The translations under genes and the position numbers were made by a program. From a virus: DNA of 57,970 nt. The DNA is taken from IMG/VR virus record IMGVR_UViG_3300045988_094645, one strand, 5' to 3'. The notes under the pieces were generated by a model. It saw only the letters and a list, made by a program, of their open reading frames with translations. It had not been told where the DNA came from and made no database searches. This document shows, in pieces, positions 1,716 through 6,568 of the stretch (positions are counted from its first letter, which is position 1; each line of letters starts with the position of its first letter).

Positions 1716-2012
1716 TTCATGTATTTCTGAGAATACCATGAAAATTTCATAGTATTGTGAGAAACCTATGAAATCATGTATTTGTTGGAAAGTTATGAAA
1801 ATTTCATAGTATTCTGACAAATACATGATTTTAATTGAAAGATTTATTTCATGGTATTCCAACAATACTATGACATGGTATTCTGACAATACCATGAAAG
1901 TAAATAAAAATCCATTTCATGGTATTCTGACAATACCATAAATATAACATATATAAGATAACAAAGAAAAGACAACGGCGACTTTTTCATGTATTTGTGA
2001 GAAAGCGATGGA
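1716..2012. repeat. iteron/operator array: ~8 copies of a 25-29 bp imperfect palindrome, consensus TCATGGTATT-CTGAC-AATACCATGA
   Basis: copies at 1716-1742, 1745-1773, 1775-1802, 1802-1828, 1848-1874, 1874-1899 (perfect 10-bp arms), 1915-1942 and 1984-2012. Confidence 0.7.
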
Positions 2013-2026
2013 TAGGGAGGATAACC

Positions 2027-2176
2027 ATGGAAGATTTTCAGAGGTGGGAGGATATTCAAGGAAGTATAGATGGGACGATGGGAGCAAATGATTTAGAAAA
2101 TCGAATTGAAAAGCTGGAAGAAGGTTTTAGAAAAATCGAATCAAAAATTAAAGGGAAAAGTCAAGAAGAAGAGTAA
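2027..2176 (+). CDS. small coiled-coil protein, 49 aa
   Basis: GGGAGG RBS then ATG; MEDFQRWEDIQGSIDGTMGANDLENRIEKLEEGFRKIESKIKGKSQEEE; ends TAA. Confidence 0.35.
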   Translation: MEDFQRWEDIQGSIDGTMGANDLENRIEKLEEGFRKIESKIKGKSQEEE

Positions 2177-2458
2177 TGGGTAGGGTAAGAGAGATTAATA
2201 GAGGTAGAGGAAAAGGGATTATTGAATCTATATGAGGATTCGAGTTAGATTACAAGCGAAGCCATAAGAAAGTGGATAGACTATAGGGAGAATATAAGTG
2301 AAATTGGAGAAAATTAGAAGAATAGTAGAGAAAATTGGAGAAATAGTAGAGTTGGGTGCCGATCGGGTCTAGGTACAACCATCACAACACTCGTCAAAAC
2401 GATCGTAAACCTAGGCTTCCGCGATTCTTCTACTTCTTTCCTCTTGTTTAATAGCAAT

Positions 2459-2492
2459 AAAAAAAGAGAGGTATCTCTACCTCTCTTTTATC
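2459..2492. terminator. intrinsic terminator AGAGAGGTA-tctc-TACCTCTCT with A-run before and T-run after
   Basis: hairpin lies directly 3' of minus gene 2488-2961. Confidence 0.55.
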
Positions 2493-2961
2493 TAAGCCCT
2501 CTCAAGAACTTAGCTACCACATCTTCATCATTGTTGCTCTTGATGGAAACGGAGACCGATTCATTTCGCATCTCCTGAATCGCCTTCTCAATTATCTTAT
2601 CAAGCTCTTCCTCTGTCGCTGCAAGTGCATCATTGATATTATTCATCCCGACAATTCGGGCAGAAATACGAGCAGTCTCAGTGATAGCCTCTGCATATTT
2701 ATTGATAGTATCAGCATCCCACTCAGGGTGAGAAGGAGCATAAATAAGAACTGCAAGCTGTCCGATATGCTCTGCATCAAGATGCTCATCATCAACAGCA
2801 TTTAGAAAGTCGCACTCAATTTCATCCAAAGCTTGCTGACGAGCCTTCCGAACCTGATTCTGCTTATTAAAGACATTTAGAGCATCAGTAAACTCCTTAG
2901 CAATATCGTCGAGAGACGCACCGCCATCAAGAGCACATTTAATCATATTAGTATAATCCAT
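2488..2961 (-). CDS. hypothetical acidic protein (157 aa)
   Basis: supplied ORF; upstream minus promoter TTGCAA-17-TATAAT at ~2975-3003 and RBS AGAGGA. Confidence 0.45.
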   Translation of the reverse strand: MDYTNMIKCALDGGASLDDIAKEFTDALNVFNKQNQVRKARQQALDEIECDFLNAVDDEHLDAEHIGQLAVLIYAPSHPEWDADTINKYAEAITETARISARIVGMNNINDALAATEEELDKIIEKAIQEMRNESVSVSIKSNNDEDVVAKFLRGLR

Positions 2962-3455
2962 GGAATATATTCCTCTTTTCTTTCCTTTTATATTTATATT
3001 ATATAATATTATTTTATAAATTGCAACCGATCGGCCCTAGCTTAAAGATCTTTTATTCTAAAATAACTTCTCTGATTGAGGCATCGACTAGAAAATTCTT
3101 AGCTAGAGAATAAGTCTTTTTAATTGTATCTATAAAAGTATAGAACAGGTGAACATCAAGAAGATTTGCTGAAAATGAGGCAAATTTTGCTAATTTTTAA
3201 GTAATTTTATTAGAAAAATGTGCGTTTTTGCTAGATTTTTAGAGAATTTTCGCTATATTAAGAGAAAAACAAGAGGAAAAACCTGCGGACCGATCGGTTT
3301 ACCTAGCTAAAAGTAGAATTTTCTAGCTATTTTTATTATAAAATCTCGTTATTCCGATCGGCGCCGCAGAAAAATCTCTCGCTGGTATTTGTTTTTCATA
3401 GCAACATCTTTGCTATTGTTAGCTGTATAGGGGATAATGTTAGTCTTATGAACAC

Positions 3456-3490
3456 TTGACAATTTTAAATTTTTTTATTATAAAAAATGG
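3456..3490 (+). promoter_or_regulatory. plus-strand sigma-70-like promoter TTGACA-17-TATAAA in the non-coding region; only a tiny ORF lies downstream, so it may drive an ncRNA
   Basis: cttgacaattttaaatttttttattataaaaaatgg. Confidence 0.3.
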
Positions 3491-3668
3491 ACGAGAAAGC
3501 CGCTATTGCTGGACCGATCGGGATAAGATAGAAAACCGATCGGGTTATAATATAATTTTGGGAGATTCTAGACTAAGTTGCGTTATGGCCAACTTGCTAT
3601 GAAAATTTTGCGCTATGGTCCGATCGGGGAAACTCGGGCCGACACATCCCTGCGCGGCCCGGCGAAGT

Positions 3669-4283
3669 TCAAGGTATTGCTCGTATTAATTCTAAAGTTT
3701 TTTCATACCCATATTTAGAAATTAATCGAGTAGTTTCTCGAGTAATTTCTTCTCGATTCTTTAGCATTAAAAGGGTATTTTGTTCTTCTGTCGCCCATCT
3801 TAGATTCTCTAATCTATTATCTGTTCTGATTCCATTAATATGGTCAACTACCTTAGTTTCAAAATCCTCAATAGGGTTAAAAGTTTGCATAACAAGACGA
3901 TGAATTCTAACTGATTCACCACCGATTAATTCAGTTTTTAAATATCCATCCGAAGTCATAGAACCTTTAACTAGAGTTTTAGAATCCTTTTTTCTTACTC
4001 TTCCAAGATTAGAAACTTCGTGCTTGTTGGAACAGTAAGCGGTTTTCCAAATTTCTCCGGGGAGGGATTCCGCAATTTCAGATTTTCGAGTAGAAAAAGT
4101 AGAAGAATCAATAATCTAAGGAGAAATTTCTTTTACTTCATATATAGCTTTTGCTCCTACTCCTTGTTTTGAAATAAGATAGCCTTTTTTTGCTTGATTT
4201 GATGCAAATTTAGGAAAGTTAGTTGTAACGGTAGATTTAGAAGCATGGAAAAATTCAAGTAGTTCGTCAAGATTAAAAGTCAT
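3669..4283 (-). CDS. HNH homing endonuclease (NUMOD4-like N-terminus plus HNH/AP2-type core), ~204 aa; needs read-through of one in-frame TAG
   Basis: rc translation from ATG at 4283 (RBS GGAGG): ...KEISP[TAG]IIDSSTFSTRKSEIAESLPGEIWKTAYCSNKHEVSNLGRVRKKDSKTLVKGSMTSDGYLKT...HRLV...VDHINGIRTDNRLENLRWATEEQN. The NUMOD4 motif EIWK...VSNLGRVR lies between the TAG and the supplied ORF start with no alternative ATG. Confidence 0.6.
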
Positions 4284-4371
4284 TTTAAATACCTCCTTTG
4301 TTTCTATTATATATTAAAAATTCGGAAATGTCAATTAACCGTTTTAGTCCGAATTTTTCCGATTGAATTAT

Positions 4372-4394
4372 AAAGAGGGCCGAAGCCCTCTTTA
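4372..4394. terminator. bidirectional terminator AAAGAGGGC-cgaa-GCCCTCTTT; a near-identical copy lies at 7066-7092
   Basis: perfect stem flanked by A/T tracts. Confidence 0.55.
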
Positions 4395-4395
4395 A

Positions 4396-4647
4396 TCAAG
4401 TCTTTTCGATAAATCCAATGGTGCTAAAGTTTATATTATTGTAGCCAATGGAGAATTCGTTCTCAGAATTATAAAATGTAATAGCGCCGTATTCTTTCGT
4501 ATAATCGCAAATTGCGTTTACAACAGCATCCCATTTTCGTTTTCTATCTATTTGTTTTCTTGCTTGCATTTCTTTTTCACAAGCGGAAAGAAGATATTGC
4601 AAAGTTTCATCATTCATTTCCGCAATATTAAATCCAGAATTATCCAT
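4396..4647 (-). CDS. hypothetical protein (83 aa)
   Basis: supplied ORF; TGA stop; terminator downstream. Confidence 0.4.
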   Translation of the reverse strand: MDNSGFNIAEMNDETLQYLLSACEKEMQARKQIDRKRKWDAVVNAICDYTKEYGAITFYNSENEFSIGYNNINFSTIGFIEKT

Positions 4648-4664
4648 CTTAAAATCTCCCTTCT

Positions 4665-5113
4665 TTATTTGAAAATCTCGGTTGGAATTTCATTGAAAAC
4701 TTGCTTGAATTGTTCCATAGTAAGCTCTTTTGCCGCTCTCTCAACCCTTTCTTTTGACCAGTCGCAGACCATTTCACAGGAGATAAACTTGATTCTATAT
4801 CCGATAACTCTATAAATTTTAGGCGACCATCTAAATTTCCCGTCCGCCATATTTCCAGTGAAAATTATAAAATCGCCCGTGGCTCGTCTTTCTTCTGATT
4901 GTTTAAGCTGATCTTCTGCTATCTCTAAGGCATATTTTTCTCCGGTTTTAATGGCATCTTCTTCTGTTCTAGTATTGATAAAGAAGGTAGAACGCATAAA
5001 ATCATCTTGAAACGATACTGTAAACCAATAGGGCCTCTTGAAGAAAATTCCTTTTCGCCCCTCACAGTCAAAGGTAATCCGAAAATCAACTCGAAACTTC
5101 TTCAAACTCTCCA
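4665..5113 (-). CDS. hypothetical protein (~149 aa; likely start MESLKKF at 5113 with GGGAGG RBS; the longer supplied ORF runs into the promoter)
   Basis: supplied ORF 4665-5183; minus promoter TTGACA-17-TGgTATTAT at ~5130-5165. Confidence 0.4.
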
Positions 5114-6166: not shown

Positions 6167-6568
6167 TTACGCCATCTTAAAGAGAGACTTGCCCTTCTTC
6201 TCCTGACAGGTCACACGGCCGTCCAGCTTGAGCATCCGCACAAGGGCGGCGGCCTTCTGAGTGGAGAAAGCGGCCAGAGAGGGCACAGACTTGAAAATGT
6301 CGGTACAGGTCACGCCGTCGGTGTCATCGGGCAGGCCGGCCAGATACTCCATAATCTGCTCCTTCAGGCTCTCGTTCTCCTGCTGGGTCGGGGTCAGCTT
6401 CTTGTCACCGCCGGAGCTATTCTTCTTCCGCAACAGCTCCAGCTCATGGTCAATGACGGTCATGGCAATCTCCATGGTTGTGCCATGCTTCACCTCCTCA
6501 CCAGCCAAGAGGGCCTTAATGTCCTCGAAACGCTGGGCCTTAGTGATACGGATTTTCTTCTCGCTCAT
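6167..6568 (-). CDS. hypothetical protein (133 aa), markedly GC-rich (~58%) compared with its surroundings
   Basis: supplied ORF; RBS AAAGGATG; terminator GGGCGGGGattttcgCCCCGCCC at 6135-6160. Confidence 0.45.
   Translation of the reverse strand: MSEKKIRITKAQRFEDIKALLAGEEVKHGTTMEIAMTVIDHELELLRKKNSSGGDKKLTPTQQENESLKEQIMEYLAGLPDDTDGVTCTDIFKSVPSLAAFSTQKAAALVRMLKLDGRVTCQEKKGKSLFKMA

Follow-up and report, generated by a model that had tools for sequence, protein, structure and literature searches.

A conserved cluster of identical palindromic octamers in the early region of a TAG-recoding phage

Results

The stretch of viral DNA analysed here (IMG/VR record IMGVR_UViG_3300045988_094645; 57,970 bases, hereafter the window) contains exactly seven copies of the palindromic octamer CCGATCGG, with start positions 2359, 3027, 3290, 3354, 3514, 3536, and 3620. 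All seven, referred to below as boxes 1 to 7, fall within 1.27 kb (2359-3627). Dinucleotide-preserving shuffles of the window yielded a mean of 0.20 copies and a maximum of 2, and the clustered set of seven palindromes far above chance that an initial annotation of this DNA had described was thus borne out in count, in clustering, and in excess. A search allowing one mismatch added two sites (13934 and 23794), which is the chance level. The count was extended to 9.7 kb upstream of the window, read from a near-identical IMG/VR contig (approximately 68 kb in total, covering about 59% of one genome). It returned no copy outside the cluster. The hexamer CGATCG occurs eight times in the window, where about 4.5 copies are expected. 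All eight lie within 2360-3626, the eighth, non-box copy at 2400, and roughly 4.4 copies are “missing” from the remainder. Short repeats of the AATTTTGC and TTGC(N)TATG types, which the initial annotation had also pointed out, do exist, but they are not individually above chance.

The boxes are interspersed with one gene and several regulatory features. Upstream of them, a cluster of small plus-strand genes ends at position 2176 and comprises a ribbon-helix-helix (RHH) gene (971-1114), a gene with a weak HTH_36 match (1279-1713), and a 59-amino-acid (aa) open reading frame (ORF). A hypervariable tandem array follows at about 2290-2350, built of purine-rich units of 8-11 nt (GAATAGTA, GAAATAGTA, GAGAAAATTG, and similar) and rich in TAG triplets. 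Unit and copy number vary in nearly every strain, and many assemblies break there. Box 1 (2359-2366) belongs to an ultra-conserved plus-strand block A (2341-2426), together with CTAGG (2369-2373), a CA-rich stretch, the extra CGATCG (2400-2405), and CCTAG (2410-2414). A bidirectional intrinsic terminator (2462-2489), whose hairpin sequence differs in relatives, separates block A and the plus-strand small genes from an early minus-strand gene of 157 aa (p157; 2488-2961), located between boxes 1 and 2. The p157 promoter (minus strand, 2998-3026; TTGCAA, 17 nt, TATAAT) is abutted at its -35 hexamer by box 2 (3027-3034).

Beyond box 2, a plus-strand promoter-like sequence, P1 (3187-3216; TTGCTA, 18 nt, TAGAAA), was read by eye; it is kept in the alignment and has no ORF downstream. 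Boxes 3 (3290-3297) and 4 (3354-3361) form the 5' and 3' arms of a long plus-strand inverted repeat or hairpin (3283-3369), in which box 3 is preceded by CTGCGG-A and box 4 is followed by CG-CCGCAG. A second plus-strand promoter, P3 (3456-3484), consists of TTGACA (3456-3461), a 17-nt spacer, and TATAAA (3479-3484), and precedes boxes 5 (3514-3521) and 6 (3536-3543). Plus-strand block C (3575-3661) contains TTGC(G)(Y)TATG repeats, box 7 (3620-3627), and, 7 nt further on, a G+C hairpin (3635-3661; CGGGCCG...CGGCCCG) that marks the distal limit of the conserved region. Downstream of this hairpin, four different junctions were seen among relatives, which carry an intrinsic terminator 20-45 nt past it in four unrelated sequence versions; in the window the terminator is replaced by a cassette encoding an HNH endonuclease.

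The initial annotation had called this region largely non-coding. That description holds for 2177-2487 and 2962-3668, but it overlooked p157, a real gene. Under genetic code 11, 2962-3668 contains ORFs of 46-48 aa only, which agrees with the earlier statement that no ORF of 60 aa or more exists over some 700 bp. With TAG read as sense, the sole longer frame extends the p157 ORF upstream and has no support. The previously predicted plus-strand promoter was likewise confirmed as P3, with no credible ORF behind it. A small protein encoded across block C (...KLRYGQVAMKILRYGPIGE...) was considered and rejected: all three of three substitutions are non-synonymous and no Shine-Dalgarno sequence stands at the proper distance, and on these grounds block C was judged to be non-coding. 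The locus also contains a perfect 13-nt complement between 2437-2449 and 3267-3279 (TTTCCTCTTGTTT / AAACAAGAGGAAA). The first copy lies between block A and the terminator, and the second is Shine-Dalgarno-like and located just upstream of box 3; strains of the L003 clade have a similar complement on the other side of the terminator.

Box number and order were compared across relatives, and in each one examined the octamer was present in four to seven copies at matching relative positions. Exactly seven boxes in unchanged order were found in five more IMG/VR contigs of about 77-80% nucleotide identity, and approximately 30 distinct ENA/Logan sequences have six or seven, the usual exception being a box 5 that reads CTGATCGG. 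Box 5 is the least conserved of the seven: it has this variant form in most strains of the window clade, is deleted in L050, and is missing from the L061-65 clade. In clades where the neighbouring exonuclease-like protein is 74-79% identical, four to six boxes are found; box 1, box 2, the 3/4 pair, and box 7 beside the hairpin are constant, and boxes 5 and 6 are dispensable, both being absent from L061, L063, and L065, which retain the others. In one lineage with 48% identity for the same protein, six boxes are still present within 680 bp, together with a G+C hairpin whose sequence differs. The octamer is also unchanged in two contigs from metagenome-assembled genomes (MAGs). A metagenome scan for box-spacer-TATAATATATA identified at least 120 loci. 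Among the matches listed, at least 45 metagenome loci combined three boxes or more with less than 50% G+C (control regions, 33-49% G+C). In five of the five metagenome loci inspected, a p157 homologue with the N-terminal motif ..ILARLQ.GESADAIAQE..DALN.. was located behind the promoter.

The boxes persist in lineages whose neighbouring genes are 25-50% identical and whose non-coding flanks are unalignable. Because they are invariant while the inter-box DNA cannot be aligned and the p157 protein diverges, the octamer is far more constrained than its surroundings. A dyad-symmetric site is thereby kept in sequence as its flanks diverge, which is the pattern by which transcription-factor operators are recognised. 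Larger elements are conserved as well: block A is 93-95% identical between clades, against about 78-80% or no alignment for its flanks, block C is almost invariant across all window-type and L003-type strains, and P3 is kept in both of these clades. Recurrence of identical boxes in many related gut phages makes a role as docking sites for a DNA-binding protein the most likely one.

Other palindromes were seen in more distant lineages. In the syntenic gap of L072 (14000-14340), CTGTACAG occurs six times in 300 bp amid many TCTGTAT half-sites, and in L069 and L070 TGCCGGCA is present in 7-9 copies beside promoters. The motifs TGCCGGCA (L069/L070) and GCACGTGC (L072) are positioned 30-45 nt upstream of TTGACA boxes. 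Both are flanked by terminators on one side and, on the other, by the A+T-rich stretch that precedes early TTGACA promoters. Operator-like palindromes within non-coding blocks were also found in Enterococcus phage EF1. A second palindrome, CATATG, follows many CCGATCGG boxes by 5-6 nt in the G+C-richer metagenome loci L085, L103, L104, L109, and L128; the corresponding places in the window hold the TTGC(N)TATG repeats. Of the two one-mismatch sites in the window, the one at 13934 (CCGTTCGG) lies inside a gene resembling poly(ADP-ribose) glycohydrolase (PARG), and several relatives have an exact extra CCGATCGG at that place, as judged by locus position and not by alignment of the site.

The p157 gene was always linked to boxes, with only 25-37% protein identity between clades. 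Its promoter is coupled to box 2. The gap between box 2 and the -35 hexamer is 0-1 nt in the window-type, L003-type, L044, L046, L050, and L061-65 lineages, and 20-22 nt, through unrelated spacers, in L059, L073, and L077; over all p157 promoters it is 0-7 or 18-27 nt. Measured from the box end to the -10 hexamer in about 28 distinct metagenome sequences, among the matches listed, the distance was 24-30 or 41-50 nt and never 31-40. The two modes, 24 and 45, are 21 nt or about two helical turns apart and place the centre of box 2 near -40 or near -61. The p157 protein is acidic, and its AlphaFold model (predicted local distance difference test score, pLDDT, of 72) is all-helical with one helix of 40 residues. 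Fold searches returned no PDB match at E<0.4 and no match to a DNA-binding fold. Several in-frame internal deletions of 3-20 codons distinguish strains in p157 and its homologues (P0111, P0115, P0227, P0232), a pattern unusual for a folded protein.

Promoters without genes raise the alternative that the boxes act in transcripts, as self-complementary 8-bp pairing modules forming hairpin stems or kissing contacts. Box 3 would pair with box 4, box 5 with box 6, and box 1 with CGAUCG at 2400, in RNAs from P1, from P3, or from a transcript ending at the 2462-2489 terminator. P3 and the terminators of relatives bracket an ORF-less stretch of about 170 nt, and such stretches, together with covariation in the flanks of boxes 3 and 4, lend support to the non-coding RNA that the initial annotation had proposed as one option. 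With their flanks, boxes 3 and 4 form a 14-bp interrupted helix whose flanks vary in concert (CUGCGG/CCGCAG, UCGCGG/CCGCGA, and UUGCGG with G.U intermediates). For the two outer pairs, the window clade has C-G/U-A and the L003 clade U-A/C-G, and U.G is seen in several strains of each. The covariation score and paired fraction exceeded those of all 500 shuffles and of all slid controls, but few independent substitutions lie behind this signal. In block A, one position of the CUAGG/CCUAG pairing is G-C, A-U, or C-G in three lineages, and the inner stem of the G+C hairpin survives double changes in the window and in L073, so that the covariation extends to 2-3 pairs in each of three helices. The length of the loop between paired boxes is freely variable, and in L077 a box is located in the loop of an 8-12-bp stem directly after a consensus promoter.

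Several observations nevertheless make RNA pairing doubtful as the function of the boxes. Folding of the box 3/4 hairpin is better than expected on the plus strand (z = -3.1), but the minus strand folds better still (z = -4.7), and five other candidate hairpins have z values near 0. The strong internal promoters point toward p157 in many lineages (L085, L104, L109, L084-type) and away from it in window-type and L003-type loci. The strand transcribed is thus not the same in all members, and a strand-specific RNA role is disfavoured since promoter orientation is reversed from one lineage to another with the boxes still in place. Box 2 is located upstream of a -35 hexamer and outside any evident transcript. 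Stem pairing also leaves unexplained why one identical sequence is kept in all copies while other stems covary.

Searches for known RNAs were negative. Rfam gave no match at gathering threshold in the whole window, and at E<=10 only chance-level matches in 1800-4500, none of them over the boxes; known families such as ribozymes, 6S RNA, and riboswitches were accordingly set aside. A hepatitis delta virus (HDV)-like fold, considered by eye for a pseudoknot in block A, was rejected on its 4-nt UAAA joiner, which has no catalytic C, and its lack of the P3/P4 elements of that fold. The box-in-loop hairpins of L059, L065, and L073 had folding energies no better than shuffles and were likewise dismissed. 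ARAGORN searches of the gap for a tRNA or suppressor tRNA gave noise only.

A replication origin, a centromere, or a packaging site might also show clustered, repeated dyad-symmetric sites in A+T-rich non-coding DNA with promoters, a G+C hairpin, and a tandem repeat that is hypervariable. In that case the boxes would be iterons for an initiator, a partition protein, or a small terminase, and the A+T-rich DNA and local promoters would provide unwinding or transcriptional activation. A DNA-level function fits the strand-independence of the boxes, and the syntenic place in L072, with its CTGTACAG copies and TCTGTAT half-sites, looks like a classic iteron field. We nevertheless regard these functions as unlikely. 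No initiator, helicase loader, ParA/ParB, or terminase was recognised among 26 neighbouring proteins, which is weak evidence because many of these proteins have no annotation, and terminase-like and portal genes are 14-17 kb away. The GC skew turns at about 16 kb, where gene orientation flips, and not at the boxes. Long contigs of relatives begin at unrelated positions and share no consistent termini, and a pac site would not be expected to have one box so closely tied to a promoter. Many contig ends do pile up at 2210-2320, and a genome terminus was considered there; they are explained by the hypervariable short tandem repeat, which breaks assemblies. The pac/cos option of the initial annotation therefore found no support, and for its centromere option no par genes were seen in 68 kb.

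Every box contains the GATC and CGATCG cores, and the window has no CGATCG outside the cluster, as might be the case if the boxes were methyltransferase or nuclease targets forming an epigenetic switch. This we consider highly improbable. Neither a methyltransferase nor a restriction gene could be recognised in the early region, and the sole nearby HNH gene is a strain-specific insertion. Such enzymes would also leave unexplained the fixed box order, the promoter coupling, and the conservation of 8 rather than 6 bp.

The window is part of a TAG-recoding phage of roughly 114-148 kb. Between 16.2 and 54.5 kb, long ORFs appear on the plus strand once TAG is translated as an amino acid, and reading TGA or TAA as sense gives nothing comparable. 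For example, the ORF at 32576-41275 encodes 2,899 aa with 103 in-frame TAG codons. This reassignment, which the initial annotation had missed, applies to 16181-54513 (+) and to several minus-strand genes. The early block, on the minus strand, extends from about 16.2 kb to 2.5 kb and contains numerous TTGACA-17-TATAAT promoters of consensus sequence. The late block encodes the portal and other virion proteins and is headed by a sigma-factor-like gene (16181-17266); with nine in-frame TAG codons in this gene, late transcription itself would depend on suppression. No tRNA gene was found in the window by ARAGORN under default and relaxed settings. Relatives L005-L007 have at least seven tRNA genes (Ile, Leu x3, Asn, Asp, Ala) at locus positions 18.9-20.5 kb, about 9-10 kb beyond the window start, and no suppressor tRNA was seen in the available part of this array.

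Locus-bearing contigs of 148-149 kb have been binned in MAGs called Eubacterium sp. and Oscillospiraceae (Clostridia). The nearest cultured relatives are the large Enterococcus siphoviruses EF1, H1, and VRE9 (one protein, 37% identity). A DNA search of a phage database with window positions 2000-5000 gave no match. phAss-1, a TAG-recoding gut phage with predicted Clostridia hosts (PMC10607447), is more distant from the window phage than these three siphoviruses.

The HNH insertion abuts the conserved module but lies outside it. IMG/VR contig 3300045988_093451 (114 kb) is 99.4% identical to the window and does not contain window segment 3643-5224, a presence/absence polymorphism that includes an HNH homing endonuclease gene (NUMOD4 + HNH_3) and two small ORFs. 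The strain-specific insertion itself is on the minus strand at 3666-4390, with the endonuclease ORF at 3669-4283 and one in-frame TAG. More distant relatives have the 172-aa and 83-aa ORFs and not the endonuclease, and the HNH gene is hence a recent insertion just past the conserved G+C hairpin. The hairpin loop is replaced in the window, and co-conversion may be the cause.

Early minus-strand genes at 13339-13668, 13653-14417, and 14976-15806 encode a PTH2-type peptidyl-tRNA hydrolase, a microbial-type PARG, and a FolD-like dehydrogenase/cyclohydrolase, respectively. Near the window end is a diversity-generating retroelement, with a reverse transcriptase gene (55656-56873, minus strand; YMDD, GxxxSQ-type motif, PHROG E=6e-83) and, upstream of it in the accessory (Avd-like) position, a 164-aa ORF (57315-57809, minus strand) without PHROG matches. 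The template and variable repeats (57182-57237 and 57905-57960) are 80% identical, with 11 of 11 mismatches at template T, corresponding to A on the coding strand (minus), and the variable repeat extends beyond the window end.

Discussion

We tentatively favour the reading that the boxes are operator-like DNA sites for a dimeric, sequence-specific factor, within a multi-promoter control region that is tied to one fast-evolving early gene and also includes non-coding transcripts and local hairpins. In this scheme a phage- or host-encoded, probably dimeric factor would recognise CCGATCGG as a cis-acting operator, and the control region that the boxes would organise, conserved and about 0.7-1.3 kb long, is at the distal end of the early genes. 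Its parts would be the p157 promoter, at least two further sigma-70-type promoters driving non-coding transcripts only, and the terminal G+C hairpin. Binding of such a factor may set promoter activity by activation or repression at about -40 or -61, and elsewhere by roadblock or looping. A perfect palindrome on duplex DNA is indifferent to flips of promoter strand, which fits a DNA-level function, and a set of binding sites also fits the loss or decay of individual boxes without loss of the others. The different 8-bp palindromes that more distant relatives repeat in comparable places point the same way. Among the functions listed in the initial annotation, binding sites for a phage protein are the best-supported option, given the kept octamer with diverging flanks, the promoter coupling, and the promoter-strand flips.

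A number of observations weigh against operators as a full account. The search for a cognate box-binding protein, in which the RHH protein and p157 were examined, found none: the RHH gene (971-1114) is missing from L061 and L065, which keep their boxes, and p157 is acidic, modelled as all-helical, and without a DNA-binding fold. Two winged-helix-like proteins, one of 133 aa encoded at 6167-6568 and the other by a paralogue upstream of the window, are candidates, as is an AbrB/MraZ-like protein (10280-10720). The far class of box 2 spacings (41-50) spans a whole helical turn, and the phasing is for this reason a mode and not a rule. Boxes 1 and 3-7 have no fixed or classical operator position relative to promoters, and box-to-box spacing shows no helical phasing (51-80 bp between boxes 3 and 4, 22 or 37 bp between boxes 5 and 6). 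Once the ascertained pair per locus is removed, a promoter is found within 40 nt of about 10% of boxes, compared with 6% of random positions. This enrichment is weak and rules out the notion that every box is promoter-proximal. Finally, the box 3/4 flanks covary like a base-paired stem, which a pure operator model does not predict.

Operators of related design are known in bacteria. Class I and class II activator sites, such as those of CRP and FNR, are centred near -61.5 and -41.5, and box 2 resembles them as a short dyad site directly upstream of a sigma-70-type -35 hexamer or about two helical turns further. The box differs from the 22-bp CRP site in having 8 bp and no spacer, and the promoter at box 2 is already near consensus; no CRP/FNR-type protein was found, and the far spacing class is broad. 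The Met boxes of MetJ, which are operators for an RHH protein, are 8-bp palindromes (AGACGTCT) in strictly tandem arrays. They share with the present locus the perfect 8-bp palindrome as a unit and several copies per control region, and an RHH gene lies 1.2 kb off. Unlike Met boxes, however, the CCGATCGG boxes are 22-670 bp apart, and the RHH gene is missing from lineages that keep them.

The pac site of bacteriophage P1, with seven GATC-containing hexamers, spans 162 bp within pacA, and ori-lambda, an example of an iteron or dyad-repeat origin, is located within gene O. The present locus likewise repeats a short symmetric GATC-containing motif in one regulatory stretch near promoters, but the cluster extends over 1.3 kb, neither an initiator nor a terminase was recognised next to it, and there is no evidence of termini. 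The cyanobacterial highly iterated palindrome HIP1 (GCGATCGC) is likewise an 8-bp palindrome with a CGATCG core; it occurs in thousands of copies genome-wide, whereas CCGATCGG is confined to one locus and differs in its outer bases. Large siphoviruses of the EF1 type also have A+T-rich non-coding blocks among their early genes, with several palindromes and G+C hairpins, although the motifs there are TAAGCGCTTA, AATAACAnnTGTTATT, and TGTGAAn4TTCACA. In the literature searched we found no functional study of these blocks. No Pfam or literature match was found for the locus, and searches for CCGATCGG itself matched only primers and an unrelated methylation table. Repeated palindromic operators are known as a kind from phage control regions, and this box, its breadth, and its invariance appear to be undescribed in the literature searched.

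A broader reading, which we hold to be possible with considerable reservation, is that the CCGATCGG locus is an undescribed and widespread switch of large, Clostridia-infecting, siphovirus-like phages, many of them TAG-recoding, in which the palindrome is read on both DNA and RNA. A conserved, possibly host-encoded factor and self-pairing transcripts would then make expression of a rapidly evolving early gene, perhaps one with an anti-defence role, depend on host state; this extension is offered with the same reservation.

We consider the finding real and biologically meaningful. Phages of this group are common in human and animal gut metagenomes, where protein clusters numbering in the hundreds and numerous contigs of 140-149 kb were found, and the group is uncultured and uses an alternative genetic code. 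For such phages the CCGATCGG signature is a marker by which members can be recognised, and the box is a defined target for pulldown or reporter work. Because lineages transcribe the locus in opposite directions, it is also a clean natural test of a DNA operator against RNA pairing. An invariant, searchable signature tied to one early gene provides a handle for finding a regulator of early infection.

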